A DNA stretch of 64,000 bases, from assembly GCA_963801165.1 (NCBI GenBank), contig CAWDDT010000005.1, positions 602,193-666,192 of the forward strand, in the 5' to 3' direction. The number at the start of each line of letters is the position of its first letter. The first letter of the stretch is position 1. The translations under genes were made by a program, and so were the position numbers. The notes below the pieces were generated by a model, which had not been told where the DNA came from, ran no database searches, and saw nothing but the letters and a program-made list of their open reading frames with translations. The stretch comes from an uncultured bacterium (lineage in GTDB: Bacteria; Actinomycetota; Acidimicrobiia; Spongiisociales; UBA5794). This document shows positions 3,373 to 25,963 of the stretch, piece by piece.

Positions 3373-4395
3373 GTGCTGTTGTTCGTGACGCTGGTATTCC
3401 TGGTCCCAGGTGCGATCTTGGCTGCAATCGTGGTGGCAGGAAGCGATGACCCTTCTCCGCTGACGGGTGACGTCGCTTCGGAGCCGCTCGTTGTAGATGT
3501 GTCCGTCTCGAGTCGTCTTGACGAATACCGGGTCGCGCTCACTGTGAATAGTCTCCCGCCGGCAACGCTCAAGGCCGTAGGGCTGTCCGGTCGGATAACC
3601 GACGTCAATGTTGCTTCTGGGGCAACGTTGACCTCCGGTGACCCGATTCTGGCAGTAGGTGACGTCGAGCGACTGGCCATGGTGGCCGACGGTCCGCTGT
3701 GGCGTGACCTCGGCAGCGGCGACAACGGTGATGATGTCGAGAGGCTGCAGCGGTTCCTCACCGACCTTGGCTACGACACGAGTGGGGCGGACGGTTCCGT
3801 TGGTCCGAGCACGTTGGCAGCGATTCGAGCGTTCAACAACGACTACGGGTGGGGTCAGCCGTCGGGCCTGTTTCGTAGCGGTGCCGTCATCTGGATCGGG
3901 GCAACCGACTTCGCTGTGGGCGAAGTGGCTGTCAAGACCGGAGATCTGATCGACGGCGGCCAAGAGCTCGCCATTGGCCCCGAATATGCCAAGTCGGTGA
4001 CAGTGGCAGAACCGCCCAATGCCCCCAGGCAAACAGATGAGGACTACGTCCTGGTTGTAGAAGGCATTTCTGTTCCCTACGTACCGGGGTCGGACGTAAT
4101 CGACGACTTCGATGACGCTCAAGCGGTGGCGAATGCAGTTGGTGACAGTGAGGAACCAGGCGGCGTCGTGCAACGCAATGAAGCTCGACAAGTCAAGGTC
4201 GTCCCCGCTACCGCGGTGGTGACGGATCAAGCAGGGGGACGATGTGTCTATGTCCCCGACGGATCTGGATTCCTCCCCGTTGCTGTGGAACCTATCGGCG
4301 GAGGCGTCGCCACTGTCGAGATAGACGCCTCGTTCAACCACGAAACCGTCCTCTCCAACCCGCGACAAGTTCTCGGGGCACCGACGTGCAGCTGA
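3373..4395 (+). CDS. Peptidoglycan-binding-domain membrane-fusion-like adaptor of ABC exporter
   Basis: N-terminal TM; LWRDLGSGDNGDDVERLQRFLTDLGY...T..AIRAF PG-binding motif; VPATAVV MFP C-terminal motif. Confidence 0.8.
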   Translation: MLLFVTLVFLVPGAILAAIVVAGSDDPSPLTGDVASEPLVVDVSVSSRLDEYRVALTVNSLPPATLKAVGLSGRITDVNVASGATLTSGDPILAVGDVERLAMVADGPLWRDLGSGDNGDDVERLQRFLTDLGYDTSGADGSVGPSTLAAIRAFNNDYGWGQPSGLFRSGAVIWIGATDFAVGEVAVKTGDLIDGGQELAIGPEYAKSVTVAEPPNAPRQTDEDYVLVVEGISVPYVPGSDVIDDFDDAQAVANAVGDSEEPGGVVQRNEARQVKVVPATAVVTDQAGGRCVYVPDGSGFLPVAVEPIGGGVATVEIDASFNHETVLSNPRQVLGAPTCS

Positions 4396-7910: not shown

Positions 7911-8147
7911 CTAGAGGGCGGGGTCGAGGATCTGGTCGACGTCTTGGCGCAACCGGTCTGGGTCTAGGGCGGGGAGGCTTCGCCGTCGCCCGATCGCGGC
8001 GCCTAGCGACATGGGTTCGCGGCCGAGGGGGCGGAGTTCGGCGACGGGCTTGCCTGATCGAGTGATGGTTAGTCGTTCGCCTTTTGCGGCGCGGTCGACC
8101 ACGTCGCCGCCATGGTTGCGTAGCTCGCGGATTGATACTTCTGACAT
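7911..8147 (-). CDS. Phd/YefM-family antitoxin, leaderless
   Basis: VSIRELRNH...GERLTITRSGKPVAEL; TACGAT -10 box 6 nt before ATG. Confidence 0.9.
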   Translation of the reverse strand: MSEVSIRELRNHGGDVVDRAAKGERLTITRSGKPVAELRPLGREPMSLGAAIGRRRSLPALDPDRLRQDVDQILDPAL

Positions 8148-8155
8148 ACCCGAAT

Positions 8156-8173
8156 CGTATCACGCGTGATACG
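8156..8173. promoter_or_regulatory. Perfect 18-bp palindrome CGTATCACGCGTGATACG, likely TA autorepression operator
   Basis: Overlaps the -10 box of the phd-vapC pair. Confidence 0.7.
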
Positions 8174-8202
8174 GCTATGGAAGACACGCAACCAGCCACG
8201 CC

Positions 8203-8257
8203 GATCAACAATTCTGCAGCAGGAACACGCACTTCACGCGGTGCGAGATATCGGCAC
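8203..8257. repeat. ~55-bp inter-unit repeat, copy B
   Basis: Same conserved blocks as 7401-7455. Confidence 0.75.
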
Positions 8258-8330
8258 CTACAGGATCGGGTGGCCGAACACCCAACGTGACGATCGTCAC
8301 TGGCGAGGCGTCCCGCCCCCGACGACGACC

Positions 8331-9293
8331 TCATGAGACTCTGGCGCCTTTACGGATGTTGCACCGCAGGTGAGCGGTCCACACGTTGTCCTCAACATGT
8401 CGGCCACCGGCGGCCAACGGGAGTCGGTGGTCCAGGGATGGGCTCTGGGGGTCGGGGTGACGGAGAGCGCGGTCGACGGGGCAGTGACAGAGTTGGCAGG
8501 TCCAACTGTCACGCTCGTAGATGGCGATCGGGTCGATGCGGTCAACCCCTCCGTCTGTTCCGGCCATGCGCTGCCGTCGTGCGTGGCGAGCAGTTGAGGC
8601 GGACGCACGGTTCAGGGCCTTAGAGCGTTGGGAGAATGCCGAAGTCCATAGCGTCGGGATCTCCTCGGCCACGCAGATCGGGGCGGACCAGGAGTAGCTC
8701 CGGCCGTCCTCATCGAGGTCTCGGAAGGTCTCCCACGTCCAGATCCAGCGCTTACCTTCGTGGGTGAAGAAGGTCCGGACTGGGATCTGGTCCCCGGCGG
8801 GATCGAGACACAGGAACCAGATGCCGCCGACTAGGCCGTCGGTCGTTGCGCCGACGATTGCGTGAGCCCGGGTGTTGTGGTGCAGACACACCGCCGCCTC
8901 GTGTTCCTCGTCACCGAGGAGATAGGGCTCACGGGGCAGGTACAGCGTCACCGAGCCATGGCGCTCGACCACATCGCCAACGAGTGGTGCCCAGCCGAGG
9001 AACTCGTATGGGAACTCGGCAGCTGGATCAGTGCCGAAGACCACGCCGCCCGGATCATGCACCAGGGGGGTCGGTGTCGGCGTCGTCAGCGTGCCGCGGG
9101 TTACGCTGCGCCTGAGACGCCGGCGGAGGTTCGCGTTGCACTGGGGCGAGCACACGTGCCGGTCGCGCTGCTTCCAGTAGGCGCCGGGCGGGATGGGCAA
9201 ACCGCATTGGACGCAGGGTTCCCCACCGGTTGCTCGTCCGTCGGGATGGAGTAGTTGCTCGTCATGCCATTCCCAGTAGGTGGAGTCGCCCAT
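8331..9293 (-). CDS. HNH endonuclease with N-terminal Cys-rich zinc-finger-like segment
   Basis: C-terminal IYERDSWTCQLC...DHRLPLAAGGRHVEDNVWTAHLRCNIRKG; N-terminal CVQC...CSPQC; start chosen at ATG 9293 (GATACT 6 nt upstream). Confidence 0.8.
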   Translation of the reverse strand: MGDSTYWEWHDEQLLHPDGRATGGEPCVQCGLPIPPGAYWKQRDRHVCSPQCNANLRRRLRRSVTRGTLTTPTPTPLVHDPGGVVFGTDPAAEFPYEFLGWAPLVGDVVERHGSVTLYLPREPYLLGDEEHEAAVCLHHNTRAHAIVGATTDGLVGGIWFLCLDPAGDQIPVRTFFTHEGKRWIWTWETFRDLDEDGRSYSWSAPICVAEEIPTLWTSAFSQRSKALNRASASTARHARRQRMAGTDGGVDRIDPIAIYERDSWTCQLCHCPVDRALRHPDPQSPSLDHRLPLAAGGRHVEDNVWTAHLRCNIRKGARVS

Positions 9294-9327
9294 GCGACCA
9301 GTATCGCGTCTAGGCGTCGGCGCACAA

Positions 9328-9584
9328 GGGCGCTGGTGGCTCTTCTCGGGGCGTCGAGCGAGCACGAGGGCCGCGGGCTCGGCGCCGGTCTCCTCGCCGA
9401 CGCCATCAGCCGGGCGGCGCAGCTCGGCACCGAGATCGGATGCCGGGGCTTGCTGGTTCACGCCGAGACACCTCAGGCCCGCGACTTCTACCTCTATCTC
9501 ATCCCCGAGTTCGAGCCGTCACCGACCGACGCCCTCCATCTCGTCTTGCTCATGAAGGACATCCTCAGAACCCTCCACGACTGA
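9328..9584 (+). pseudogene. 3' fragment of a TacT/AtaT-type GNAT toxin
   Basis: HEGRGLGAGLLADAI...IGCRGLLVHAET..ARDFY...FEPSPTDALHLVLLMKDI; N-terminal half and antitoxin missing; left boundary approximate. Confidence 0.7.
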
Positions 9585-9769
9585 CGCCCGGCCGTGAGCA
9601 CGGCGAGCAGTCTTCCGCATCTCGGGGCGCGCTGGGGGCGCGGGAGAATGAAAAACGATGCAAACCACTGGGAGATGACCAATGATGATGAGTGGTCGAA
9701 AACCTCTGTGCCATAACGGTTTTCGGCATTATCGCCAGCTATTTGGCGACTTCCGAGAAACGCCCCGAA

Positions 9770-9828
9770 CGGTCTTGAAAACCGTTGAGGTAATACCTCC
9801 GTGGGTTCGAATCCCACTCCCTCCGCCA
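9770..9828 (+). mobile_element. 3' half of tRNA-Ser(TGA): probable att junction at the right end of an integrated island
   Basis: Anticodon arm CGGT-CTTGAAA-ACCG, long variable arm, T arm GTGGGTTCGAATCCCAC, CCA end; no 5' acceptor strand or D arm; GGGGCGCG direct repeats at about 9623-9642. Confidence 0.85.
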
Positions 9829-9830
9829 GC

Positions 9831-9857
9831 GAAAAGTCCTGCTACACAGGGCTTTTC
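9831..9857 (+). terminator. Hairpin terminator after the tRNA-Ser 3' end
   Basis: GAAAAGTCCTG-CTACA-CAGGGCTTTTC. Confidence 0.6.
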
Positions 9858-9978
9858 ACTGCATGCGGGTCGATCGTTAGCACCGCACCAGCAGGCCCGA
9901 TTGGCGCGCGGGGCAGCTCCGAACCCTGCATCGGGGGGCCTATCGACGTATGACAATTCGTGATACCATGCCCCCGGC

Positions 9979-10218
9979 ATGGCTCGAGCAATATCTGTAC
10001 GACTCGACGATGAAGCGCTTCACGCTCTAGGCCAGCTCGAAGCGGCTGGCATGACCCGTTCCGAAGCGATCCGGGCGGCATTGGTTGAGGCTGCGTCGCG
10101 ACGCCGCGAAAAACAGGCGCTGGCAGCGGAAGTTGCCGCTCTCGAAGCCGACGAAGATGACCGGGCCGAGATGGCGGCAGTGGCCGACCTCATGGAGAGC
10201 CTCCGTGCAGCGGGGTGA
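9979..10218 (+). CDS. RHH antitoxin (MazE partner)
   Basis: AISVRLDDE...MTRSEAIRAAL; overlaps the toxin start. Confidence 0.85.
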   Translation: MARAISVRLDDEALHALGQLEAAGMTRSEAIRAALVEAASRRREKQALAAEVAALEADEDDRAEMAAVADLMESLRAAG

Positions 10219-10522
10219 CATCTTTGACCTGCGGCTCCCTAAGGGAGTCGATCATGAACAGCGCGGGAAGCGCTTTGGCGTGGTGGTGCAATCGGATGCG
10301 TTTCTTCCGCGGTCGGTGATTTTGGTTGCCCCGACTTCCGCGAGCGCCAAGGCAGCATCGTTCCGGCCTGAGATCGAGATCGAAGGCTCATCGACCCGGG
10401 TTCTTGTTGAACAAGTCGGCGGAGTCGATATCAACCGGCTCGGAGACCTAGCCGGTCACCTCACTTCGGAAGAACAATGGGGTATCGACAACGCTCTGCT
10501 AACGGTTCTCGGACTGACCTAG
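10205..10522 (+). CDS. mazF: PemK/MazF-family endoribonuclease toxin
   Basis: GTG start; QRGDIF...HEQRGKRFGVVVQSD...VAPTS...VLVEQV..VDINRL. Confidence 0.88.
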   Translation: MQRGDIFDLRLPKGVDHEQRGKRFGVVVQSDAFLPRSVILVAPTSASAKAASFRPEIEIEGSSTRVLVEQVGGVDINRLGDLAGHLTSEEQWGIDNALLTVLGLT

Positions 10523-10574
10523 CCGAGCCGACCACCAAGTCCCGGGCGGAAACGAGTTGGTGTCGAGTTCCCTG

Positions 10575-10752
10575 CATCAACAAGCTACAGCAACAACTAG
10601 ACCGGTGCGGGCGGTATCAGCCCGGGGACCGGTCCTCGTCAACAACCGACACGATCACAAGACGTGCTGTCGATATCGACCCACCAAAGCAGCCGACCGA
10701 TGTTTCCTATGTCTCGCGACATGCCGTTCCCATGTCCTGAAACAGAGCACCA
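10575..10752 (+). mobile_element. IS481-family relic (deleted transposase 3' end and right end)
   Basis: Translates as KLQQQLDR...DIDP...VSYVSRH; repeated TGTCTCGCGACA / TGTCCTGAAACA motifs typical of IS481 ends; boundaries approximate. Confidence 0.55.
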
Positions 10753-10867
10753 CTCCGTCCGTAGTAGAAGCCCAGCATCAGCTGGGCTTCTACTGGTCTT
10801 CGGTTGATGGGATAGAGAATGGCGGTCGCCGGTCTGGCTTGTGATTCTGCGTCCCTGGCGCCGGTCC

Positions 10868-12571
10868 TCAGTCGCCGCTCTGTAGGGCGTGGAGGTCTGC
10901 CACGACGCGATTCGAGAGTTCGGTGACCGTCTGATAGGCCCGGTCTGCACCTGCGTTGTCGCCTGAGGTCTTTGCGGTGATGACCGCATGGATCTGCTCG
11001 TGGAGGGATTGATGGTTCTGCTCCAGCGACTTCATCTCAGGTCGATTGCCGTAAGTCTTGATACCCATGCTGTAGAGCCATAGTCCCAACTCGCAGTCGG
11101 TGTGGGAGGCGACATCCTCTCGGTGGAGCTCTTCTGTGCCCCGCAGGTAGTCACGGATTCGTGCCTTCCATGCCTGGTGAGCGGATATTGCTGCAGCGAA
11201 GTCCAGAGAGCCGTCTCCGAATGTGAAGCCGCGGAGCGCGGCTGCCAGCTCACGTGAGCTCTTTGCGAGGTCCTGAGCGGTGTGCCCAATCTCTGTGGAG
11301 GATGCGGCCAGTTCCTCCGACGACGCTGCTACCTCCTCCGCGGTAGCCGAGTTCGATTCGGCGACAACAACGAGGTCCTTGACGGCAAGCCCGATCGACT
11401 CCGTGGATCCGGAGATCGAAGTCGTCGCCGTACTGAGCTCGCGGACCCTGGTTTCCATCGAGGTCACCGCGTCGACAATGTTGCTAAAAGCGCTTCCGGC
11501 GTCGCCGATGATTTGAGCGCCCTGGTCCACATCTGCCTGGCCCGAGCCGGTAGCCCGCTTGGCGTCGGCGACCGATTCTCGGATCGACCCCACCAGATCC
11601 GCGATCTGCTCGGTCGATCGCGCCGACTCTTCGGCAAGAGCTTTCACCTCGGCGGCAACGACAGCGAAGCCGCGACCGGCATCGCCGGCGCGCGCAGCTT
11701 CGATGGCGGCGTTCAGGGCAAGAAGGTTGGTCTGCTCTGCTATCGACCGTATCAGGTCGACTATCTCCTCCACCTTGGTGGAACGACTGCCCAACTCGAG
11801 GACGGTGTCGGCGACATCCCGAAACGAGGACGTAATTCGCTCCATCGCCCCGATTGCCTCATTGAGCTTCGCCTTCCCAGACTCCGCCGTCTCCTCCGCC
11901 TGCTGGGATGTGTCGAGAACCTGGCGAACGGCCTCTACCGCGGCGGTGACGGTTTGCCCGATATCGGCCACGTGATTGGCCACCCGGTCCGTGACCGCCG
12001 CCTGGGACACGGCGCCGTCCGCCACGGAGGTGATCGCATTCGCTACTTCGTTGGAAGCCTGTTTCGATTCGTCGGATGCCTCTGCCAGCGCGTCGGAGCC
12101 ATCTTGAACCCGACGACTGATATCGGCTGCCAGCCCGATGATGGACCGCAGGCCCACGGTCATCTCGTCGAACGCGCCGCTGAGGTCGGATAGAGCACTG
12201 CTAATGTCGCCCGAGACGTCGGAAATCGTCGCCTCGTCAAAGTCGATCTGGGCGTTGAGGTTCCCCCTCGCCACATCCCGGATTGCCCCGACGAGCTTCT
12301 CTATCTCACTCGACAGTGCTTGTCCGCTTGCGGCCGAGGAGCTGCCGGCGATTCTCTGCAACACCAAGACGCGGATCAGCATGATCCCAAGGCCGGTGAC
12401 CAGAGACGCAGCTAGTACCGCCGTCCAGGTGATGCTCCGACCAGCGATCAGGTAGGCTACCCCTGGTGTGATCAGCAACGGGGCGAAGCCGGCGGCACGC
12501 AGCCATGCACGCACACCGCTCGGATATTCACGTCCAGAAGCCCCCCGACTCGGTCGATCACCCACACTCAT
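10868..12571 (-). CDS. Methyl-accepting chemotaxis protein with HAMP and C-terminal CZB zinc-binding domain
   Basis: [20 protein letters not shown]; C-terminal H..WK...[12 protein letters not shown]...H..LH; two TMs with no periplasmic domain; GGAG RBS before ATG 12571. Confidence 0.9.
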
Positions 12572-12691
12572 AAAGGCTCCAGCCTGTAGATTCTGGCGCT
12601 TCCGGTGTGGAAAGCCCATATCTCGTGTCGGCACCATGCCACGATCGTTAAGAAATCCAGATGAGAACCCCACACTGAGTGATGCCACTGA

Positions 12692-12819
12692 GAAAAAGCC
12701 GCGCGGCGGCTCATGGGAAAGAGTCGCCGCGCATGGTGCGGGACGCGGCGCCCGGCCCGTCTCGACCCGGGAAGGTGGCCGGGCCGGGCACCGCGTCTTT
12801 TTTGCCGGGTGAGTTTCAC
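12692..12819 (-). ncRNA. Candidate two-hairpin small RNA complementary to the RBS of the divergent gene at 12923
   Basis: 18-bp stem (12742-59/12780-97) with a 20-nt loop; 12-bp stem (12701-12/12721-32) followed by U5 on the minus strand; ECF-like promoter upstream; strand uncertain because a T6 tract also follows hairpin 1 on the plus strand. Confidence 0.45.
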
Positions 12820-12825
12820 CCCGTT

Positions 12826-12890
12826 ATTGCCCGATGCCGGGATTCAGGTTCCGACTGGCTGACGGAACCCGAATCCGGGGGGCGGGCAAT
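12826..12890. promoter_or_regulatory. Back-to-back twin ECF-type promoters GGAACC-N13-CGGGCAAT
   Basis: Plus: GGAACCcgaatccggggggCGGGCAAT (12864-12890); minus: GGAACCtgaatcccggcatCGGGCAAT (12852-12826); identical spacing. Confidence 0.55.
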
Positions 12891-12922
12891 TGAAGGAAAG
12901 GCCGATCCGGGAAGGTGGCGAG

Positions 12923-13474
12923 ATGTTTGGTTCGAAGAGAACTATCGCGGTCTTGTTCATGGTTGTTGTTGCGGTGCTGGCAGGTGTCGGGACTGCCGCG
13001 GGCGCCGAGCCTGCCGATGAGCATTGTGTCGTCGAGGTCATCGATCAGTTGGATACGGGCGAATTCGTGCTCTCCGATCCGGTCTGTTTCGGCACGTTCG
13101 CTGAGGCAGCGTGGTTCGCCTCGTCGGGTGCGGTTGCTCTCGACAGCGACGTTACACCCGCCGATCTGGCGCACCTGCCTGTGATCGCCGTCGTCCTCTC
13201 GACGTTCACACTCGGGGTCCACTACGACGGGTACAGCGGTGGCGGCTCCTCGATCAGCGTCGTCGGCTCATCTTGCTCCGGGGGATATTGGAATACACCG
13301 CCGGCGTGGGACAACCGGATCTCATCGACGTGGAACGGCTGCTATCGGGTCAAGCACCACGATCACCCGGCCATGGGAGGCGCCTACCGGTCGACGGTCG
13401 GCACCGGCTCGGTCCACAACGTTCCGTCGGCGTTGGACAACAAGGCGGAGTCCATCTCCTACTGGAGTAGCTGA
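12923..13474 (+). CDS. Secreted protein, I36/beta-gamma-crystallin-like (homologue of 757-1356)
   Basis: Signal peptide ending AGA; C..PVCF.T..EA, HYDGYSGGG, WDNRISS, LDNKAESI. Confidence 0.75.
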   Translation: MFGSKRTIAVLFMVVVAVLAGVGTAAGAEPADEHCVVEVIDQLDTGEFVLSDPVCFGTFAEAAWFASSGAVALDSDVTPADLAHLPVIAVVLSTFTLGVHYDGYSGGGSSISVVGSSCSGGYWNTPPAWDNRISSTWNGCYRVKHHDHPAMGGAYRSTVGTGSVHNVPSALDNKAESISYWSS

Positions 13475-13504
13475 GCCCGAGGGTAGACCGGCGAGAATGA
13501 CGTA

Positions 13505-14092
13505 GTGGAGGACATGAACGACGGCGAGGTGATGCGATCGTCTGTTGACGATCCCGCCGCGTTCCATATCGTGTTCGACCGTTATCACGCCCGGATTTTC
13601 TCGTATCTGGCAGCACGAGTAGGGCCGTCCGACGCCGAGGATCTCGCCAGCGAGGTCTTTGTTGCCGCGTTCCGGCAACGGGCGAAGTTCCGGGAAGACG
13701 CGGTCAGCGCCGCGCCGTGGCTGTACGGGATCGCGGCAAATCTCGCGCGGCGGCACCACCGATCGAAAGCACGTCGTCGGCGCGCCCACGGCCGGGCGCC
13801 GGCCGATGGCGGCATCTGGTTCGATCCCGACCGCGATGCGCAGATTGACGCCGCCCGCCGGATCGAGCTACTCCGCAGCGAGCTCAACCGGCTCCGCGAG
13901 AAAGACCGCGAGGTCCTGTTTCTCTATGCGTTGGCGGACCTCTCCTATGCCGAGATCGCCGAAGCGCTCGACATCCCGGTAGGGACGGTGCGCTCACGGC
14001 TGTCACGTACGCGGGAGAGGCTCCGGAACCTATTACCCGACGAGGGGAAAGACAAGGGTGAGGGTACCGCCGAGTACGGGGGAGGTGAATGA
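13505..14092 (+). CDS. ECF RNA polymerase sigma factor
   Basis: DAEDLASEVFVAAF, PWLYGIAANL, LSYAEIAEALDIPVGTVRSRLSR. Confidence 0.93.
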   Translation: MEDMNDGEVMRSSVDDPAAFHIVFDRYHARIFSYLAARVGPSDAEDLASEVFVAAFRQRAKFREDAVSAAPWLYGIAANLARRHHRSKARRRRAHGRAPADGGIWFDPDRDAQIDAARRIELLRSELNRLREKDREVLFLYALADLSYAEIAEALDIPVGTVRSRLSRTRERLRNLLPDEGKDKGEGTAEYGGGE

Positions 14093-15084
14093 TGACAGCA
14101 GAACGCGATCCGCTTCGGGACATATTCGACGGTCTTGTCGATATGAGGCAGCCGACGCCCGGCCAAACCGAATCAGCGCGACAGACTCTGGTTGCGGTCA
14201 TTCAATCAACCCCCGCCCGTAGGCAGCCACGGCTCCGTCGCCTCGTCCCGGCTGCCGCCGTGGCTGTTATTGCCCTCGTGATCGCTTTGGTCGCGGCAGC
14301 GCCGTGGAGCCGTACGCCCGCAGAGGCTTTCCTCGGAGAGATTGCCGAAGCGGCTCGAACTATCTCGCCCCAGGAGATGCCCGAGGGTTCGTACATCTAC
14401 TTCGTCAGGAACGAGGTGATCTTGACAGGGAAGGACGAGCCGATTGGGAATACCCTGGTGGACATTGACTACTTGCTTCCCGATCGGACTGAGAACTGGT
14501 GGCAGGGCCAGACGGTAGAGAGCAAGACGAGCGTGGGTGAGCCGATCTTCTTCAGCCCGGAAGATAAGGCCACCTACTATGACAACGGAGTGGACCAGAT
14601 CGATGCGGTGGGTCAGACGAGGACTCAGACACTGACGGGTGTCGCGGACTGGGTGGGCGAGACTGATTGGTCGATCGACCCGGATCAGCTGGCCATCCAG
14701 ATGAGGGAGGCAGCGGAGGCAGACCACGGCGAACAACCGATCGACGTCAAGATGATGAATCTGGCAGCCAGGATCCTCGATCCGAAGCTTGTGGCCCCAC
14801 CGGCGCTACGTGCCGCGGTTCTAGACGTCCTGGGGACGCTCGATCTCGACCAAGCCCGGCTCGACGGTGGACGTGTTTCGGCTTCGACCACGTACGAGGA
14901 TCGCTACTACGGGACCGTCACCATGGAGCTCGTTTTCGACGGCGACGGCTACCTGGTCGGTCGGCAGGAGACGACAACGACCGGCGACCGGGAAGGGTCC
15001 ATCCCTCCGGGCACGTCGTATGCAACTATCACGTACTCGCCGCCGGTGAGTGTTGCCGCACCGGGAGTTCGGCCTTCTCCATGA
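14089..15084 (+). CDS. CU044_5270-like membrane protein, probable anti-sigma factor
   Basis: ATGA overlap with sigma; RRLVPAAAVAVI TM, GSYIY, E.WW, APPALRAA motifs. Confidence 0.7.
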   Translation: MMTAERDPLRDIFDGLVDMRQPTPGQTESARQTLVAVIQSTPARRQPRLRRLVPAAAVAVIALVIALVAAAPWSRTPAEAFLGEIAEAARTISPQEMPEGSYIYFVRNEVILTGKDEPIGNTLVDIDYLLPDRTENWWQGQTVESKTSVGEPIFFSPEDKATYYDNGVDQIDAVGQTRTQTLTGVADWVGETDWSIDPDQLAIQMREAAEADHGEQPIDVKMMNLAARILDPKLVAPPALRAAVLDVLGTLDLDQARLDGGRVSASTTYEDRYYGTVTMELVFDGDGYLVGRQETTTTGDREGSIPPGTSYATITYSPPVSVAAPGVRPSP

Positions 15085-15121
15085 GGTCCAGCCTTCGGCA
15101 TGAGTTGTCGCCGGTTGAATT

Positions 15122-15163
15122 GAGCAAAGTTCTATATATACTAGAATAATATAGAGTTTGCTC
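15122..15163. promoter_or_regulatory. AT-rich imperfect inverted repeat enclosing a -10-like box (operator)
   Basis: GAGCAAAGTTCTATAT...ATATAGAGTTTGCTC around TATACT/TAGAAT. Confidence 0.5.
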
Positions 15164-15186
15164 CCGGTTCCCGAAAGGTTGGAATC

Positions 15187-16320
15187 ATGAAGAGGTTCGT
15201 CCCGACGGTAGCGCTTTGCTGTCTGGTTGCCTCGTGCGCGGACTCCGGTGGTCCGGCGACGACAACTTCATCCACGCCGTCATCATCAACCACAGCCACG
15301 ACGACGACCGTCGCGACCACGACAACCACCCAGGCACCGCCCTCGACGGCAGCGCCGGCAGAAGCGGTGAGGGAGGTCACCTTCATGTCGGGAGACCTCG
15401 AGCTGTCCGGCACCCTGCGGCTCCCGGAAGAGGGCAACGCTCCCGGGGTGGTCCTCATTCACGGGAGCGGTCCGAACACCCGCGACGAGGCGGTGAGCGG
15501 GCAGATCAACATGAGCTTCGGTTTCGAGATCCCCGTCTTCGTCGAGCTCGGAGATGCTCTCCAGCAGGCCGGATTTGCGGTTCTCACTTACGACAAAAGG
15601 ACGTGCGGCCCCTTCAACGGATGCGGCGACAACGGCTATCCGGTTCCGGGCGACGATCTGGTCATCGACGATTTTGTCGCCGACGCGGGGGCCGCGGTTG
15701 CGTTCCTCCGAGAGCAGCCGGAGGTTGACCCGTTCCGGGTCTCGGTCGTTGGCCACAGCCAGGGCGGCGAGTTCATACCCGTGTTGCTGCAGGCCGATCC
15801 CAAACTGGCAAGCGGGGCGATGCTGTCCGGCCCCTACCGGCCCATCGATCAGCTGATTGAGTTCCAGTACACGTCGTCAATCGACCTGCTGGAGTCCCTC
15901 GGCATGACAAAGGATCAGGCGATGGCTGCGCCGGGGATGTCGGATCTGGCGGCGACCTTGGAGGGTCTGCGACAGATCCGCGATGGGAGCGACGAAGCTG
16001 TGGCCGGGGTGTCTGCGACCTTCTGGAACAGCTGGTTCGACCTCGACGAGGCGAAGCTGAATGCGGCGGCAAACCTCACCCAGCCGGTTCTCGTAGTCGG
16101 TGGCGACTACGACTGGAACGTGCCGCCCGAGGAGGCCCAGTCCTGGGACCAGTTGTTCACCGAGTCCGGGGTCGCGCACACAACGGCGATCCTGGACTGC
16201 GTAACCCATGCGCTCAACTGCGTGACTGAGACAGATCTCACCGCGATCTCGGCCGACGACATCGGCGCACATGTGGCGGATGGGGTGACCAGCGCACTCA
16301 TTGAGTTCTTGTCGCGATAG
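15187..16320 (+). CDS. Lipoprotein alpha/beta hydrolase
   Basis: Lipobox VASC, Thr-rich linker, IHGSGP, GHSQG nucleophile elbow. Confidence 0.88.
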   Translation: MKRFVPTVALCCLVASCADSGGPATTTSSTPSSSTTATTTTVATTTTTQAPPSTAAPAEAVREVTFMSGDLELSGTLRLPEEGNAPGVVLIHGSGPNTRDEAVSGQINMSFGFEIPVFVELGDALQQAGFAVLTYDKRTCGPFNGCGDNGYPVPGDDLVIDDFVADAGAAVAFLREQPEVDPFRVSVVGHSQGGEFIPVLLQADPKLASGAMLSGPYRPIDQLIEFQYTSSIDLLESLGMTKDQAMAAPGMSDLAATLEGLRQIRDGSDEAVAGVSATFWNSWFDLDEAKLNAAANLTQPVLVVGGDYDWNVPPEEAQSWDQLFTESGVAHTTAILDCVTHALNCVTETDLTAISADDIGAHVADGVTSALIEFLSR

Positions 16321-16329
16321 TCGAACCGG

Positions 16330-16668
16330 TTAGTCGGTGACCTCTGCCCAGTCGTCGTTGCTGCGGAACAGCCCCGCGGTGAGCCGGTGGAATGTCTCCC
16401 GCGGAGACTCCTCAGCGGGCGCGAAACGGTGATTGCGTAGCACCTCGGTGCCCGCGGCCACCAGCACCATATATCCGGTTAGGGCAAAGACGATGTTGAC
16501 GGAAAAGAGCATCACCAGGAAAACGCCGAGCATCGTGGCGAGCGCAAGACGCACCCGCTGTGCCATGGGCAGGCTGGGACCGGCGTTCATCCTGGCGACG
16601 AACGCCGCATCGCTTTCGGCGAAGTCGGCTTCGAGCGCTTCGAGAATCTCGATTTCTTCACGGTTCAT
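16330..16668 (-). CDS. DUF3040-like membrane protein
   Basis: MNREEIEILEALEADF..SD..F then two TMs; RBS AAGAGG. Confidence 0.65.
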   Translation of the reverse strand: MNREEIEILEALEADFAESDAAFVARMNAGPSLPMAQRVRLALATMLGVFLVMLFSVNIVFALTGYMVLVAAGTEVLRNHRFAPAEESPRETFHRLTAGLFRSNDDWAEVTD

Positions 16669-16737
16669 GTTCAGCCTCTTGGTGGCGCTGCAGTCCCTGT
16701 CGGCACGAGGCGCCACCACGAAAGCCAAACGCACGGT

Positions 16738-18048
16738 CTACCTCGGGTCGGTCACCTGGCCCAGGAAGAGCATCTCCCCGGTGCTGTTGTGCTCGATCCA
16801 GAACAGGAAAGGCCGGTTGGCGGTGAACGTGACCGGCTCGCCGACCTGCGCCGATGTCAGACCGACGATGAGAGCAGTGGCTGCGGCCGCCTCGGTCCCA
16901 CTCTCATCGACGCCGATGAATGTCTTGTGGAATGCATCCGAGACGTAGAGCTGCTCGGCGGTGGTGATCCCGCTGAGATCCGCCGCCGTGGGGTCGAACG
17001 CCTGGACCATCCCCAGCTCTTCAAGCGCCTGCTTGAGAGGGACGTCGGAGTCGATCTGGAACGAGGGCACGGACACGTTGACCTCGGCGCTGTCCCAGGC
17101 AATGGCGAGATCAGCGGCCGTGAGCTTGTCGACGAGGTTGGCCAGGGAGCCGTTCTTCGGGATGGCGACGACCATCGAGGCATCACCCGAATACGGCAGC
17201 CGGACTGCTGCGAACAGGTCGTTCGACGCGTACTCGGTGTGGATGGTCTCGTGCATCATCGGCACCGTCACCTCTTCACCACCGGTCAGGGTGAACGGGT
17301 CGTTCGTTGTCGAATCCTTTGCGAACTGGGTTTCCCAGTTGGCGTAGAACCAGATGGCGTTGACCAGTGCCAGCCGGGTGCTTGGGTCGATTGCTCCCTC
17401 GGGGACCAGATCCTTGATCCGCTCCTCCGTGGCGTCCTCGACCCAGGAATTGATGGCGTCCCTCGCCGCCTCAGGGTCACCACTGAAGTCCACCAGCCGC
17501 AGCCCCGCGCCGTACTGGGATGCCAGGACCTCGAGGTAGTCGTCGAGGAACGGGAAGCCGCCCTGACCCCAGGCCGAGTTGGCCGGGTTGATGGTGAACG
17601 GCTGTCGCTCGTCGTCCGGACCCGCCGGTTCCGGCGCGGCGCTCAGGGCTGTCTCGATGGCGTTGCGAACCGCATGCAGCGTGTCATCCGGAACGTCGAG
17701 GTGGAGCACTGCCGCGATCTCCTCTGCGGTGGTGCCTTTCGCCCCCGGGTACAGCATGCTGAGAGCGGTGGCAATCGAGTACGGCGAGAGCATCAGGTTC
17801 TCGCCGCCGGCAGTCGCCCGCAAGAGGTCGAGCCCGAAGGCGGCGTCACCGGCGGTTACTGCGGCGATGTCGGCCTCGGTTGCCGAAGGCGTGGCGCGGG
17901 GCACATCAAGACTTGCCAGCTCACCCTTCTGGAACGGGATGGTCGATGCTGTGGGCTGGGGGCTGGTGGTGGTTGGGGCCGACCGGCCGGTGGACCCGCA
18001 TCCGGCGACCAGCAGTACTGCGGTGGTCAGGATTACCAGGCGACGCAC
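16738..18048 (-). CDS. Serpin-family serine protease inhibitor, lipoprotein
   Basis: Lipobox VAGC; NLMLSPYSI, LVNAIWF..W, hinge ESGTEAAAAT, FTANRPFLF. Confidence 0.93.
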   Translation of the reverse strand: MRRLVILTTAVLLVAGCGSTGRSAPTTTSPQPTASTIPFQKGELASLDVPRATPSATEADIAAVTAGDAAFGLDLLRATAGGENLMLSPYSIATALSMLYPGAKGTTAEEIAAVLHLDVPDDTLHAVRNAIETALSAAPEPAGPDDERQPFTINPANSAWGQGGFPFLDDYLEVLASQYGAGLRLVDFSGDPEAARDAINSWVEDATEERIKDLVPEGAIDPSTRLALVNAIWFYANWETQFAKDSTTNDPFTLTGGEEVTVPMMHETIHTEYASNDLFAAVRLPYSGDASMVVAIPKNGSLANLVDKLTAADLAIAWDSAEVNVSVPSFQIDSDVPLKQALEELGMVQAFDPTAADLSGITTAEQLYVSDAFHKTFIGVDESGTEAAAATALIVGLTSAQVGEPVTFTANRPFLFWIEHNSTGEMLFLGQVTDPR

Positions 18049-18129
18049 TATGTCCACCTTTCCGGGATCTGCGACGTGCTCACCGTTTTGGACGCTGTGT
18101 GCCACCGTCGGGGTTCCCGCAGGGGGCAG

Positions 18130-23066: not shown

Positions 23067-23160
<94 letters not shown>

Positions 23161-23680: not shown

Positions 23681-25963
23681 TCAGCCGACCTGGAAGCGGT
23701 CCAGAGTCGTGATCAACTGGGCGGAGGAGTCCGATAGCTGACCGGCCTGGCCTCCCAGCTCCACTGCTGCGGCGGTTGCCTCCTCGGACGAGGCGGCAAC
23801 CTGCTCGGCCACGGCGCTGTTGGACTGAGCGAGGGCCGCCAGTTCCTTGGTGTCGTTCGCAATCTGGTGGGCGGCATCTTCGATCCGCCCGGTTGCGGAC
23901 TCAACGTTGTGCGCCCGTGTGTCGATCTCATCGACCGAGGCGGCGATCGTGCGGAAGCTCTCACCGGCCGAATCGACCACGGTGGACCCGTTCTCGATCT
24001 GGACCCTGCCGTCGTTTGCTGAGCGGACGGTTGTCGCCACTCCGGTCTTCATGTCGCCGACGATCGATGCAATCCGCTCGGTCGAGGAAGCCGATTCTTC
24101 GGCGAGCGACTTGACCTCGGAGGCGACCACGGCAAACCCGCGGCCAAGCTCACCGGCACGGGCGGCCTCGATCGCTGCGTTCAACGCCAGCAAGTTGGTC
24201 TGCTCGGCGATGGAGCGGATCAGGTCGACGATCTCCTCGACCTGGACGAACTGGCCGTCGAGAGTGGTGACCGAGTTGGATACATCACCGAATGCGTGTG
24301 TGATGGCTTCCATCGCCCTGGTTGCCTGGTCGATCAGGTCGAGACCGCTCGTGGCCTCGTTACGGGCCGTCGTCGACGCGTCGACCACGCTCCGCGATGC
24401 CTGGGCTGCGACATCTACCTCGGTGCTGATCCTGTCGACCGCCTGGAGGAGGCTGTCTGAGATGTTCGCCTGTGAGGTGGCGGCCTCGGCGACCGAGGAG
24501 ATGGCGGTGGCAACTTCTTCGGCAACCTGTGCCGACTCCTTCGAACCACCGCTCACGGAATTAGACGCTAGGTCGACGTTGCCGGCGACGGAACGGGCGT
24601 CACCGACGACCTGACGGAGCGAGGCGACCATGCGGGCTAGAGCATGTCCGAGAACGTCGCTGTCGCCGACCGGTTGGTGCTCGATACGGAGGTCACCGGA
24701 CGCAACCCGCTCCGCGGACTCGGCCGCGTAGGCCATGTATTGGACGGTACCTTCGAAGGCTACGACCATGTCGCCGAGCTCGTCATTCCGGCTCACATCG
24801 AGGTCGATGTTGGTATCGCCGGACGCCAGACGCTGCGCAGCCGCGGCGACGGTCTTGATCGGCTTGCCGAACCGTCGGGCGAACCAGATGCCTGCCCCTG
24901 CTACGAGGAGGGCAATGACGAGCGAGGTCAGGATGAGCTGCCTGGTGAGCGAGCCAACCGAAGCCAGGGCCTCGGCGGTGTCGTCTTCAACGATCAGCGC
25001 GTAGGTGTTGCCGAACACGTCAACCGGCTGGTAGGCCGACAGCGTTTGGACGCCGCGGTAGTTGGTAGAGACCTCGACGCCTGTGTCCCCGGCAAAGGCG
25101 TTGGAGACCTCGTCGGTCTCGACCTTCGTCTCGAGGATGGTGTTGTCGGATGAGAACCGGCTCTGGGTGCGCATCAAACCGTCGCTACCAACCAGGTACG
25201 CCTCACCTGTTTCCCCCAGACCCGAGGTGCTCTGCATGATCTGTGCGATCTGGTCGAGGGGCATCTGGAAGGCGAGGACGCCGACGGGCTCGGAGCCGCC
25301 GTCGTAAATCGGCGATGCTACGAAGGCAGCCGGATCACCGTTGGACGGTGCGTAGCGGGCGTAATCTGTCCAGTAGACCTCGCCCTCGGGAAGAGCCATG
25401 GCGCCGCGGTAGACGTCACCGAGACCGGTGTCGGCGTAGGGCCCGTTGATGAGGTTGGTGCCAAAGTCGTCTTCCTTGAAGACGGTATAGACACAGTTGC
25501 CTTCGGTGTCGAACAGGAACACGTCGTAGTAATCGAACTGGACCTGGAACTGGCGGAACCAGGGGTGGTAGGTGGCCGAGTCGGCGGACCAGGCGGTGCC
25601 GTCCCCGGCGTCTACCAGGTCTCCAACCGTACCCCGGTAGGCGGTCCGCACCGTGTCGGCACCGACCGCGGCGAAGCTGTCGGCGAACTCGATGAGAGCC
25701 CCCCGGGTCTGGTCGCTGGACGCGACGGTGATCGCCTGATTGGCGATCGTGTCCGAGTACCTCGTGATCGTTTCCGCCCTGCTCGCCGCAACGCCCATCA
25801 GCCCGTTGCCGGCCGAGTCGGTGAGGGCGCCCGAGGCGGCACGGACCGACATCGTTCCGGCTATGGCGATCGGGACAATGGCGGCCGCCACCACAGCTGC
25901 CGCGATCTTCATCGTTAGTGAAACGCGGTGGTCCCCAAACGCGCCCTTGATCCTCTGAATCAC
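23681..25963 (-). CDS. Methyl-accepting chemotaxis protein with dCache-like sensor and HAMP domains
   Basis: [50 protein letters not shown]; AGGAG RBS before GTG 25963. Confidence 0.92.

Follow-up and report, generated by a model that had tools for sequence, protein, structure and literature searches.

A candidate antisense RNA from a mirror copy of an ECF promoter, predicted to target the leader of the sigma factor's own operon in Acidimicrobiia

Introduction

Can an ECF sigma factor direct the synthesis of both the mRNA of its own operon and a small RNA that represses this mRNA? The question is raised by a 64,000-nt stretch of DNA from an uncultured bacterium of the Acidimicrobiia (the whole stretch is called the window hereafter), in which two ECF-type promoter motifs stand back to back. 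One of them faces an operon encoding a secreted protein, an ECF sigma factor and an anti-sigma-like protein, the other faces a hairpin element whose loop repeats the ribosome binding site (RBS) of the same operon. ECF sigmas belong to the most abundant signal-transduction systems of bacteria, and to our knowledge their control has been described almost wholly at the protein level, namely by anti-sigmas, proteolysis and partner switching.

We compared the window with 63 related loci from Acidimicrobiia, all of them from MAGs, of which 58 are non-duplicate. Left out before counting were L045 (the same as L044), L035 (a run of N within the element), L049 (an unconvincing 6-bp stem with a 46-nt loop) as well as L004, L050, L059 and L032 (too little upstream DNA). 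Start codons were chosen by Shine-Dalgarno (SD) score, five of them being set by eye. Many of the loci are akin, so the counts given below overstate the number of independent events.

Results

The sigma factor operon and its neighborhood

The operon in the window consists of three genes:

Gene 1, 12923..13474, plus strand: secreted protein of 183 aa, carrying a signal peptide and, at its C-terminus, a beta-gamma-crystallin-like domain
Gene 2, 13505..14092, plus strand: ECF sigma factor (Sigma70_r2, Sigma70_r4_2, Sigma70_ECF, TIGR02937)
Gene 3, 14089..15084, plus strand: anti-sigma-like membrane protein, its gene sharing 4 nt with that of the sigma

For the gene 1 protein 157 relatives were found, and neither Pfam nor NCBIfam assigns it to a family. 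Its AF2 model has a pLDDT of 86.2, and the top matches of the model in the PDB are microbial beta-gamma-crystallins, with weak E-values (TMt ~0.72, E 3e-3). The gene 3 protein matches the CU044_5270 family weakly and under the family cut-off. The module of secreted beta-gamma-crystallin-like protein, ECF sigma and anti-sigma-like protein recurs in the related loci: the sigma gene lies immediately 3' of the gene for the secreted protein in 58 of 63, and the anti-sigma-like gene is found 3' of the sigma gene in 51 of 63. No other ECF paralogue was detected in the window.

Upstream of the operon the window contains an MCP gene on the minus strand starting at 12571, which is therefore divergent to the operon starting at 12923 on the plus strand. 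This MCP gene is present in none of the 63 loci. The orientation of the upstream neighbor is mixed, with 24 plus and 24 minus among the 48 that were called by a crude ORF caller, which gave nothing in 10 loci and some doubtful ORFs.

Two promoter copies on opposite strands

Between the two divergent genes we located the following motifs:

P+, 12864..12890, plus strand: ECF-type promoter of the operon, -35 GGAACC at 12864-12869, -10-like CGGGCAAT at 12883-12890
Predicted mRNA start from P+, about 12896-12898, plus strand
P-, 12826..12852, minus strand: twin copy, -35 GGAACC at 12852-12847, -10-like CGGGCAAT at 12833-12826

ECF promoters are characterized by a GGAAC-like -35 and a short CG-containing -10 about 16-18 nt downstream, and both copies agree with this consensus, which we took from general knowledge. 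The two back-to-back GGAACC-N13 motifs with equal spacing, reported in a preliminary description of this DNA, are present exactly as given there. GGAACC-N13-CGGGCAAT occurs exactly twice in the window, both times with 0 mismatches; the shuffled window yields a mean of 0.59 matches even if up to 2 mismatches are allowed. Together the copies form a 28-nt inverted repeat (12826-12853 / 12863-12890) that is 82% complementary with 9 nt between the arms. A simple promoter and terminator scan over the element called nothing.

The P+ motif is also found 5' of the orthologous operons of L019, L032, L034, L039, L041 and L046 (P+ of L046 is GGGGCAATAA). These six, out of seven loci with a sigma that has more than 50% identity to the one in the window, share with the window a CGGGCAA -10 on both strands; L002 has the CGGGCAA motif on the minus-facing side only. 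A minus-facing copy is thus present in all 7, and the -35 in loci of the CGGGCAA type is GGAAC or AGAAC. L006, for which no sigma gene was found, carries a minus-facing variant motif. Other ECF subgroups use CGGCGAAT, CGACAAACAAC or the -35 TGAATAGAAA, in each case common to both copies within a locus. The motif tracks the cognate sigma, as similar sigmas share a type and divergent sigmas differ. The twin arrangement proposed from the window alone hence recurs in related loci, with both copies changing together between ECF subgroups.

When the P+ region was matched in inverted orientation to the upstream DNA, the mean score was 10.5 compared to 7.9 in the direct-orientation control (Wilcoxon p 6e-7), and a score of at least 10 was reached in 31 of 58 loci versus 6 of 58 in the control, although this motif-free test is noisy and in part responds to the palindromic centre. 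A regular expression of GGAAC type, which is blind to subgroups with another -35, returned 'no pair' in 18 of 61 loci. The distance between the two -35 boxes ranges from 0 to 68 nt across loci, and such a variable gap suits two promoters rather than one dimer operator. Since the upstream neighbor varies in identity and orientation, we consider the minus-facing promoter as part of the module and not of the neighbor.

A predicted small RNA with a loop complementary to the RBS

On the strand read from P- the following features are arranged:

Predicted small RNA, 12693..12821, minus strand: about 125 nt, both ends predicted
5' mini-hairpin GGGUGA-AAC-UCACCC, 12807..12821, minus strand: at the expected transcription start, read from the sequence alone
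Hairpin 1, 12742..12797, minus strand: arms 12742-12759 / 12780-12797, 18 bp, 94%
Anti-RBS loop sequence, 12763..12779, minus strand: RNA GCCACCUUCCCGGGUCG, complementary to 12903-12919 over 17 positions with one G:U
Hairpin 2, 12701..12732, minus strand: arms 12701-12712 / 12721-12732, 12 bp, 92%
Target site, 12903..12919, plus strand: in the short 5' leader of the operon, covering the Shine-Dalgarno GGAAGGTGG and ending 3 nt before ATG 12923

In 5' to 3' direction the RNA would thus comprise the mini-hairpin, A6, the anti-RBS hairpin 1, the terminator-like hairpin 2 and U5. Hairpin 1 has a 20-nt loop (12760-12779) and one G:U in its minus-strand stem; its MFE of -47.5 kcal/mol corresponds to a z of -6.4 against same-length segments of 8001-17500, 0 of 150 being as stable. 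Hairpin 2 has an 8-nt loop, UUUCCCAU, and one A.C mismatch in the minus-strand stem, and is followed on this strand by GGC-UUUUU (A5 on the plus strand, 12693-12697). It is probably the terminator of the predicted RNA, judging from stem and U-tract. A simple terminator scan did not call hairpin 2, as its rule wants the T-run no more than 2 nt from the stem and here it begins after 3.

Rfam, searched with the window element as had been suggested, returned no family at the gathering threshold. At E of up to 10 the window region gave four chance-level matches to unrelated families, the best one over the element being ar7 with 13.8 bits and an E of 6.9, for which the gathering score is 60. In six related loci tRNAs only were found at the gathering threshold. 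Nor is the element a dispersed repeat, an objection considered at the outset, as far as the window is concerned: blastn detected no other copy of the intergenic region there.

Loop and RBS form a 17-nt direct repeat (12763-12779 / 12903-12919) with 1 mismatch, C vs T, which is found nowhere else in the window. We could confirm both the coordinates of this match, which spans the RBS and stops 3 nt short of ATG 12923, and the claim that the sole difference becomes a G:U wobble in the duplex of minus-strand RNA and mRNA. For this duplex we calculated -43.7 kcal/mol. In a comparison of the loop with 425 candidate starts in the window (mean -16.7 kcal/mol, sd 4.35) its own RBS scored best with -38.7 kcal/mol, the runner-up reaching -29.9. 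Exact copies of the 13-mer CCGGGAAGGTGGC are limited to loop and RBS in the 64 kb.

Conservation of the hairpin and the nature of the minus-strand transcript

In 37 of the 58 non-duplicate loci a GC-rich hairpin is located just past the minus-facing copy of the operon promoter and displays in its loop a copy of the RBS of the same locus. These are 30 initial hairpin loci plus L011, L014, L030, L037, L040, L051 and L053. No anti-RBS hairpin was found in the remaining 21 of 58. Among close relatives of the window, L019, L039 and L032 keep the minus promoter and have no clear anti-RBS loop, L032 being situated at a contig end.

The 30 initial loci were picked for having the repeat and their stem limits were optimised by the analyst, which has to be kept in mind for the results on hairpin stability, stem wobbles, strand preference of the MFE and loop/RBS duplex energy. 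The pattern [AG]GAAC-N16-18-xAA ends 7-20 nt (median 9) before the base of the minus-strand hairpin in 20 of 30 loci, compared to 25 of 3000 random windows with the pattern in the same place. Stability relative to random same-length segments gives a mean z of -4.2, with 0 of 150 segments as stable in 27 of 30 loci. Covariation of the stem, a check proposed beforehand, is in favor of a conserved structure: in an alignment of 9 loci fitted with a covariance model (CM) 91.2% of the cells pair versus 83.7% after shuffling (0 of 500 shuffles reach this value), changes on both sides affect 10 of 20 stem pairs versus 4.0 in shuffles (0 of 500), and slid controls pair at 34-52%. Applied to MAFFT alignments with 30 or with 12 hairpins, RNAalifold gave a wrong consensus or none, as the stems differ in length and are out of register. 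At E of up to 1 the covariance model R1, built from a hand-given structure and 5 similar sequences, detected 12 minus-strand loci together with two echoes on the plus strand and a single spurious match. Being narrow and made for the main subgroup, it did not match the hairpin of the window; it is a common architecture, and not the sequence, that speaks for homology between the element of the window and the main group.

In the window, L034, L041 and L046 the anti-RBS hairpin is followed by another, terminator-like one. The two-hairpin element of about 125 nt with U5, as first described, therefore holds for the window, its second hairpin, U5 and length being restricted to the window and its nearest relatives. 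The second loop, described as anti-SD-like, is not conserved in this respect across related loci.

P- might also be an ordinary regulon promoter for the upstream gene, with the hairpin as the 5' end of a longer transcript, that is a stabilising stem-loop or leader, whose loop would still pair in trans without a discrete small RNA. A run of at least 4 U within 130 nt after the hairpin is absent in 27 of 30 hairpin loci, as such a transcript would predict, and in L012, L017, L011, L037 and L040 a protein-coding gene with its own RBS starts 25-50 nt past the hairpin. With a coding gene that close, the hairpin possibly forms the 5' terminus of an mRNA and not of a free small RNA. L054, L055 and L060 show the same promoter followed by a small Cys-rich ORF without hairpin, and a divergent lipoprotein gene follows in L019, L039 and L046. 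However, these lipoprotein genes come with a separate, conserved -10-like box, TACCAT, and the window, L034, L041 and L046 possess the second, terminator-like hairpin. The varying upstream neighbor, on the plus strand in about half of the called cases, also speaks against this explanation: where it is co-directional with the operon the minus transcript serves no gene (e.g. L003, L029, L010). We consider a longer transcript unlikely and prefer a discrete small RNA.

Covariation of loop and RBS

Direct copies of the locus' own RBS region with a score of at least 8 are located upstream in 41 of 58 non-duplicate loci, in 35 of these at a spacing of 106-167 nt from copy to RBS and mostly at 106-122 nt. 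In the comparison of related loci, a check proposed beforehand, the loop copy changes with the RBS (CTGTGGAGG, CTGCGGAGG, CGTCGATGAAGGAG, GAACAAAGGACGGCAA and others). Words matched within a locus are GACCTGTGGAGG (L063), CTGCGGAGGT (L009), ACGTGGAGGT (L061), CCGTCGATGAAGGAG (L042), GAACAAAGGACGGCAA (L058), GGAGAGGTGGC (L002) and, in the window, CCGGGAAGGTGGC. Without any selection of loci, the 260 nt upstream taken as minus-strand RNA pair with the own RBS at a mean of -33.9 kcal/mol in the 58 loci, compared to -29.3 for non-cognate pairs and -29.4 kcal/mol for the plus strand (Wilcoxon p 1.2e-6); 0 of 20000 permutations reached the observed own-RBS mean.

The differences between loop and RBS also have a direction. 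Among well-flanked transitions 16 are G:U-compatible for a duplex of minus-strand RNA and mRNA and 0 are incompatible; we judge that these represent at least 9 independent events. Counting all transitions in the alignments the ratio is 32 compatible versus 16. No conserved inhibitory fold was found in the leaders, which implies that pairing should repress rather than activate.

Alternatively, both RBS-like words could be DNA sites for a regulator that loops the twin-promoter region, RNA being uninvolved. The rather constant spacing of the copies and the position of the direct repeats, which flank both promoters, would agree with that, yet fixed lengths of promoter, leader and stem also account for the spacing. 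DNA looping leaves unexplained why the upstream copy constantly lies in the loop of a covarying GC-rich stem and why transitions are biased in one direction, and it would need a co-varying DNA-binding specificity, as the words vary widely among paralogous modules. We regard it as very unlikely.

A plus-strand RNA ending at the T6 (12798-12803) right after hairpin 1, with its GGGAA loops acting as a decoy for an RBS-binding protein, had been put forward in the preliminary description as well; GGAGG loops and the ribosome can be included in the same idea. The element folds slightly better on the plus strand (-81.9 kcal/mol, z -5.35 vs shuffles) than on the minus strand (-72.2 kcal/mol, z -4.97), and MFE expresses no strand preference across loci (minus better in 12 of 30, plus in 18 of 30, p 0.42). 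On rereading the sequence, the wobbles of hairpin 1 indeed favor the minus strand and those of hairpin 2 the plus strand. Against a decoy, isolated stem wobbles across loci favor minus in 31 cases and plus in 16, G:U pairs at fixed positions of the minus-strand RNA (GU in 6 of 9, UG in 6 of 9 sequences) would be A.C on the plus strand, and the 16-to-0 direction of loop/RBS differences is tolerated only by minus-strand RNA and mRNA. In other loci the T-rich run is nothing but the opposite strand of the A-rich extended -10 of P-. No plus-facing promoter was noticed upstream, the both-strand scan covering the CGGG-type pattern only. Taken together the decoy is highly improbable, and the minus-strand RNA remains our reading.

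There is hardly any chance that the hairpin is an ordinary terminator or insulator with a fortuitous SD-like word in its loop, and the inverted repeat a palindromic operator. SD-like words are common (CCGGGAAGGTGGC with up to 2 mismatches occurs 7 times in the window vs 3.8 expected) and the A and T tracts flanking the hairpins resemble bidirectional terminators, but the matches reach well past the SD and show covariation between loci, the two -35 boxes are variably spaced, and divergent flanking genes leave nothing to terminate.

Discussion

A proposed feedback circuit

The motifs, the hairpin and the complementarity, together with their conservation and covariation, are seen in silico and can be arranged in one circuit. 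Both back-to-back promoters would be served by the ECF sigma encoded 600 nt downstream and respond to its activity. P+ would transcribe the three-gene operon with a leader of about 25 nt, and P- an oppositely oriented small non-coding RNA, discrete and ending near the predicted terminator, whose first large hairpin displays a 17-nt anti-leader loop with complementarity running from the Shine-Dalgarno to 3 nt before the start codon. With the sigma active, both RNAs would be made within about 100 bp of each other. Pairing of the small RNA with the leader would block 30S binding at gene 1, possibly lead to cleavage, and thus repress translation. Positive autoregulation may in this way be damped or thresholded in an incoherent feed-forward loop. 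The idea that one sigma makes an mRNA and its antisense repressor, originally derived from the window, gains support from the comparison (twin promoters, covarying loop and RBS, G:U bias), and we assign a probability of about 0.68 to an ECF-driven antisense RNA occluding the RBS of the sigma's own operon, as predicted from sequence. If one sigma serves both RNAs, simple stoichiometric repression would always take away the same fraction; threshold behavior needs unequal affinities of P- and P+, with P- being active at the lower sigma level.

If real, the arrangement provides a sigma circuit under positive autoregulation with a brake made of RNA, and offers dozens of natural variants with concerted changes in promoter, loop and RBS. 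The conserved, co-evolving antisense RNA seems to be an integral part of the ECF module, aimed at its own leader. Extending this further, the ECF modules of Acidimicrobiia could constitute a large family of four-part cassettes, composed of a sensor-like secreted protein, a sigma, an anti-sigma and a private antisense RNA from a mirror promoter, with several modules per genome, each paralogue having its own co-evolved loop/RBS code and the RNA acting as a noise filter or threshold versus leaky sigma activity. We offer this generalization tentatively, at slightly less than even odds. If true, it would represent a hitherto undescribed layer of ECF signaling and a natural set of orthogonal sigma-plus-riboregulator parts.

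Relation to known systems

The enterobacterial RpoE (sigma-E) sRNAs MicA, RybB and MicL are transcribed by an ECF sigma, block translation initiation and feed back negatively. They act on omp/lpp mRNAs elsewhere in the genome, need Hfq, and their feedback is indirect. The predicted RNA would resemble them as an ECF-transcribed base-pairing sRNA with negative feedback on the activity of the sigma; in contrast to the present locus their targets are genomically distant and the feedback is indirect, and no Rfam family matches the element described here.

Divergent type I toxin-antitoxin pairs such as IstR-1/tisB, OhsC/shoB and OrzO/zorO consist of a divergent, non-overlapping sRNA with about 18-21 nt of complementarity in the 5' leader of the target, and local synthesis favors pairing. 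The geometry is alike: an sRNA gene divergent from its target, without overlap, pairing with the 5' leader. Here, however, both RNAs appear to share one alternative sigma. We rejected assignment to this class, as the target, the first gene of a sigma/anti-sigma operon, encodes a secreted protein of 183 aa and not a small hydrophobic toxic peptide. The 6C RNA of Actinobacteria forms hairpins exposing C-rich loops and is likewise a hairpin sRNA of high-GC Gram-positives; the loop here is a locus-specific anti-RBS and not a conserved C-run, again without an Rfam match.

A further likeness is to ErsA of P. aeruginosa, where the ECF-type sigma-22 (AlgU) drives both algC transcription and its repression by the sRNA (PMC13613067); the term 'incoherent feed-forward' occurs in the same source. 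There an ECF-type envelope-stress sigma drives a target gene and the sRNA repressing it, as the ECF sigma of the present module may do. The abstract of PMC13613067 does not describe ErsA as adjoining its target or the sigma gene, whereas here the putative RNA gene lies inside the sigma module and would be read from a twin copy of the operon promoter, its predicted target is the leader of the sigma's own operon, and the loop covaries with the RBS of each module. That the same sigma may serve both genes is predicted here from identical motifs on both strands covarying across loci. DonS of Bacteroides fragilis is also an sRNA divergent from the locus it represses; it belongs to another phylum and a PUL locus, and the passage describing it mentions neither a twin promoter nor loop/RBS complementarity. 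A literature search, with subscription journals and supplements outside its reach, found no description of the present arrangement and no paper on regulatory RNAs of the class Acidimicrobiia.

Additional observations

Two further candidates were considered for the intergenic region and discarded. A bidirectional intrinsic terminator is ruled out as it needs convergent genes, and the MCP gene and the operon diverge. A small plus-strand ORF after the SD-like loop was rejected because its start is not conserved. A candidate for an additional target of the predicted RNA is the gene of a serpin-like lipoprotein at about 18048. The P0001 contigs, with a 98% identical protein, are closer relatives of the window.

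A hairpin loop repeats the ribosome-binding site of its own operon

Upstream of the operon for a secreted protein, an ECF sigma factor and an anti-sigma-like protein, the preliminary description placed a two-hairpin element, one loop of which repeats the operon's ribosome-binding site (RBS). Both hairpins are present, and loop and RBS form a 17-nt direct repeat (12763–12779 and 12903–12919) with one C/T difference, ending 3 nt before the ATG at 12923. Exact matches to the 13-nt core of this repeat are confined to these two places in the window, which is high-GC. The locus is composed as follows:

10868–12571, minus strand: methyl-accepting chemotaxis protein (MCP) gene, left of the element, with MCPsignal and CZB domains
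12572–12922: divergent intergenic region of 351 nt holding the element
12701–12732, predicted minus-strand RNA: hairpin 2, 12-bp stem and 8-nt loop
12742–12797, predicted minus-strand RNA: hairpin 1, 18-bp stem and 20-nt loop
12807–12821, minus strand: 5' mini-hairpin of the predicted RNA
12923–13474, plus strand: operon gene 1, secreted 183-aa protein; Pfam and NCBIfam searches returned no family
13505–14092, plus strand: operon gene 2, ECF sigma factor
14089–15084, plus strand: operon gene 3, anti-sigma-like membrane protein with a weak, below cut-off match to the CU044_5270 family

Of 566 candidate proteins, 157 are relatives of the gene-1 product at E up to 1e-3, and a search of the genome collection with an alignment of 30 of these gave 63 loci (L numbers below). 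All relatives found are from Acidimicrobiia MAGs, and the gene-1 proteins of the 63 loci are at most 57% identical to that of the window. By tblastn, an ECF sigma gene lies directly downstream of gene 1 in 58/63 loci and an anti-sigma-like gene belongs to the module in 51/63, loci missing either being mostly at contig ends; the MCP neighbor of the window was found in 0/63.

In most modules of the family the hairpin loop contains a direct copy of the ribosome-binding region of the same locus. Among the 58 loci that are not duplicates and extend far enough upstream, 41 show an upstream ungapped direct match to the RBS with a score of at least 8, at a spacing of 106–167 nt in 35 of the 41. The copy lies inside the hairpin loop in 37/58 (30, plus 7 added in later inspection) and covaries with the RBS: the loop word differs among loci and matches the RBS of its own locus, as for GACCTGTGGAGG (L063), GCGACCTGTGGAGG (L008), CTGCGGAGGT (L009), ACGTGGAGGT (L061), CCGTCGATGAAGGAG (L042), ATCGATGAAGGA (L036), GAACAAAGGACGGCAA (L058), GGAGAGGTGGC (L002) and CCGGGAAGGTGGC (window). 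These counts exclude L045, which duplicates L044, L035 because of an N-run, L049 for its unconvincing stem, and four loci at contig ends (L004, L050, L059, L032).

We also assessed pairing without selecting for the repeat. The 260 nt upstream of each of the 58 loci, taken as minus-strand RNA, were matched by RNAduplex to positions -30 to +5 of every locus. The mean was -33.9 kcal/mol for cognate pairs vs -29.3 kcal/mol for non-cognate pairs, and permuting the locus pairs 20000 times never reached the cognate mean. The plus-strand reading gave a mean of -29.4 kcal/mol against the own RBS (Wilcoxon p 1.2e-6). For 30 delimited hairpins, a set chosen for having the repeat, the values were -40.3 (cognate) vs -29.7 kcal/mol, the cognate RBS ranking first in 12/30 and never below 11th. 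When the loop of the window was scanned against 425 candidate start regions its own neighbor scored best (-38.7 kcal/mol; next -29.9; mean -16.7, sd 4.35). Fourth, at -27.5 kcal/mol, was a serpin-like lipoprotein gene (GTG at about 18048, minus strand), whose RBS region (18040–18070) reads AUCCCGGAAAGGUGGAC, similar in sequence to the predicted sRNA target; this may be a second target or chance.

Conservation of the hairpins

Both strands of the window element fold far better than shuffled sequences (z -4.97 for minus, -5.35 for plus). Inspection of the 300 nt upstream of every locus revealed a GC-rich hairpin directly after the minus-facing promoter in most modules. With stem limits optimised by the analyst, the 30 hairpins had a mean z of -4.2 against random windows of the same length, and in 27/30 cases 0/150 windows were as stable. 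Five similar hairpins served to build a covariance model, which hit 12 loci on the minus strand. In the alignment of the best 9 of these, which is fitted to the model and thereby biased toward the structure, 91.2% of stem cells pair vs 83.7% in shuffles (0/500 reach this value), and 10/20 stem pairs are changed on both sides vs 4.0 in shuffles (0/500); slid-control alignments pair at 34–52%. No other copy of the intergenic region was found in the window by blastn, and no Rfam family matches the element, the best score being 13.8 bits vs a gathering score of 60.

The 3' end had been described as a U5 tract. Downstream of hairpin 2 the minus strand indeed reads GGC and then U5, but a simple terminator scan made no call, since the U5 starts after GGC, one base beyond the scan rule. 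A run of at least 4 U within 130 nt after the hairpin is found in only 3/30 loci, and directly after a second hairpin in the window only; in L034, L041 and L046 a second terminator-like hairpin is present but no U run follows it. In the window an 11-nt complementary pair, AAAAAGCCGCG and CGCGTCTTTTT (12693–12703 and 12792–12802), brackets both hairpins. Pairing of this A-tract with the T/U-tract could enclose the entire element in a single long structure in either RNA.

Predicted divergent promoters of the module

The twin promoter motif reported for the window, GGAACC-N13-CGGGCAAT, was recovered in exactly two back-to-back copies of equal spacing in 64 kb with 0 mismatches; with up to 2 mismatches allowed, the shuffled window gave a mean of 0.59 matches. 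Both copies lie in a 28-nt inverted repeat (12826–12853 and 12863–12890). A simple scan called no sigma-70 promoter in the intergenic region. In seven loci the sigma is >50% identical to that of the window (L002, L019, L032, L034, L039, L041, L046), and six of these carry a CGGGCAA -10 motif with a GGAAC or AGAAC -35 box on both strands, L002 having it on the minus-facing side only. Paired divergent promoter-like elements, [AG]GAAC-N14 followed by a -10 box, occur in most modules, including subgroups with quite different sigmas. The -10 box varies among subgroups (e.g. CGGCGAAT, CGACAAACAAC, CGGGCAATAA) yet is alike on both strands within one locus; the -35 box is TGAATAGAAA in L011, L037 and L040. 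Because L002 has a second tandem minus-facing promoter (3560–3660, GGAACC...CGGGCAATAA), about 150 nt past the first and followed by two more GC-rich hairpins, this locus may make two RNAs.

The minus-facing promoter might simply be the ordinary promoter of the upstream neighbor gene. In L011, L037 and L040 an aldehyde-dehydrogenase-like N-terminus begins 25–50 nt past the hairpin, as does another coding gene in L012 and L017, and in L054, L055 and L060 the promoter leads into a small Cys-rich ORF (beginning VAKYRRRKGSDTWHWCRNCSNW) in place of the anti-RBS hairpin. However, the upstream neighbor is not conserved among loci and faces either way (of 48 loci with an ORF found by a crude caller, 24 have it on the plus and 24 on the minus strand); in loci such as L003, L029 and L010 the upstream gene is co-directional, leaving the minus transcript no gene to serve. 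As coding genes follow closely after the hairpin in some loci, the RNA may exist as a free sRNA at certain loci and may form the start of a longer transcript at others. L019 and L039 keep the minus ECF promoter without a clear anti-RBS loop. Farther upstream in L019 (3740–3800), L039 (600–660), L046 (3620–3670) and L034 (3540–3560) a divergent lipoprotein gene is preceded by a conserved GCTTACCATGC, which may be its own -10 box.

Strand of the predicted RNA

Promoter pattern, loop/RBS differences and stem wobbles all point to the minus strand. On the minus strand the pattern [AG]GAAC-N16-18-xAA ends 7–20 nt short of the hairpin base (median 9) in 20/30 loci vs 25/3000 random windows; in the other ten the promoter is farther off (window, L021) or the locus falls in a subgroup whose -35 box differs. 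Loop C/RBS T and loop A/RBS G are acceptable for a minus-strand RNA because G:U results, the reverse changes giving A.C. Counting only transitions with 2 or more flanking matches on either side and 8 or more in total, we find 16 of the tolerated kind and 0 of the other, representing about nine or more independent events by the analyst's count after collapsing obviously related loci; over all counted alignments the figures are 32 vs 16. Isolated stem wobbles favor minus by 31 vs 16, and at two minus-RNA stem positions of the 9-locus fitted alignment G:U or U:G is the commonest pair. Minimum free energy gives no strand preference (minus better in 12/30, plus in 18/30), and the wobble in hairpin 2 of the window is on the plus strand, counter to the minus reading.

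The alternative raised earlier was a plus-strand decoy RNA terminating at the T6 after hairpin 1. In most loci the T-rich run 3' of the hairpin on the plus strand corresponds to the extended -10 of the minus promoter, which is A-rich on its own strand, so the main argument for a plus-strand terminator falls away. In the window itself the T6 is distinct from the -10 and sits between the 5' mini-hairpin and hairpin 1.

Proposed circuit

The preliminary description proposed an ECF module with its own antisense RNA repressor, and the comparative evidence, namely the conserved layout and the loop/RBS covariation, supports such a reading. Given the observed anatomy, conservation and covariation of the element, we put the probability that a minus-strand RNA pairs with the operon leader and represses translation at roughly two in three. 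Release of the sigma by the anti-sigma would allow RNA polymerase with this sigma to fire both promoters. The operon mRNA leader would be only about 25 nt long, and a search for a conserved inhibitory fold in operon leaders found none. The small RNA would pair with this leader, starting just past the leader's 5' end and stopping 3 nt before the start codon (a 17-bp duplex in the window; elsewhere an exact match of 8–16 nt, with longer imperfect duplexes predicted), and thus prevent 30S binding at gene 1. Translation of the sigma and anti-sigma genes might be lowered as well, through polarity, coupling or cleavage. Such a circuit would superimpose an incoherent feed-forward loop on the positive autoregulation of the operon. 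Unequal promoter affinities could suppress leaky expression and impose a threshold, whereas equal affinities would only scale the output.

Sigma-E-dependent MicA, RybB and MicL are ECF-driven repressors with indirect feedback on the sigma. In divergent type I toxin-antitoxin pairs a non-overlapping divergent sRNA has short complementarity in the leader, a geometry shared with the present element. In Pseudomonas aeruginosa, sigma-22 is reported both to drive algC and to repress it through the sRNA ErsA (PMC13613067), a precedent for the logic of the predicted circuit. Bacteroides fragilis DonS is encoded divergently to the PUL it represses, by a mechanism reported as unknown (PMC11697453). None of these combines the three features of the present module: a mirror copy of the operon promoter, a target in the leader of the sigma's own operon, and loops and RBSs that have co-evolved across the family. 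We found no prior description of the arrangement in Rfam or in the open-access articles searched. Sigma-driven repressor sRNAs are already known; what appears new is that a putative sigma-dependent antisense sRNA forms part of the ECF module itself.

Additional observations

The C-terminal half of the gene-1 product looks like a microbial beta-gamma-crystallin domain: in the AlphaFold2 model (pLDDT 86.2) such domains are its closest PDB folds, the best being 3so1 (TMt about 0.72, weak E of 3e-3). Tblastn of the 64 kb revealed no further ECF paralogue. A second MCP paralogue is located at 23915–24661 on the minus strand (249 aa aligned at 47% identity), and a tRNA-Ser (GCT) gene (23067–23159) by chance resembles the RBS word at its 5' end. 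The module is multi-copy in some genomes, several MAGs having 2–4 loci: isolate S.2_sp3_bin.30 has four (L016, L018, L026, L059), and L044 and L045 are identical copies about 22 kb apart on contig JAHEDI010000093.1. Among paralogues of the same genome the loop/RBS word is sometimes common and sometimes different.
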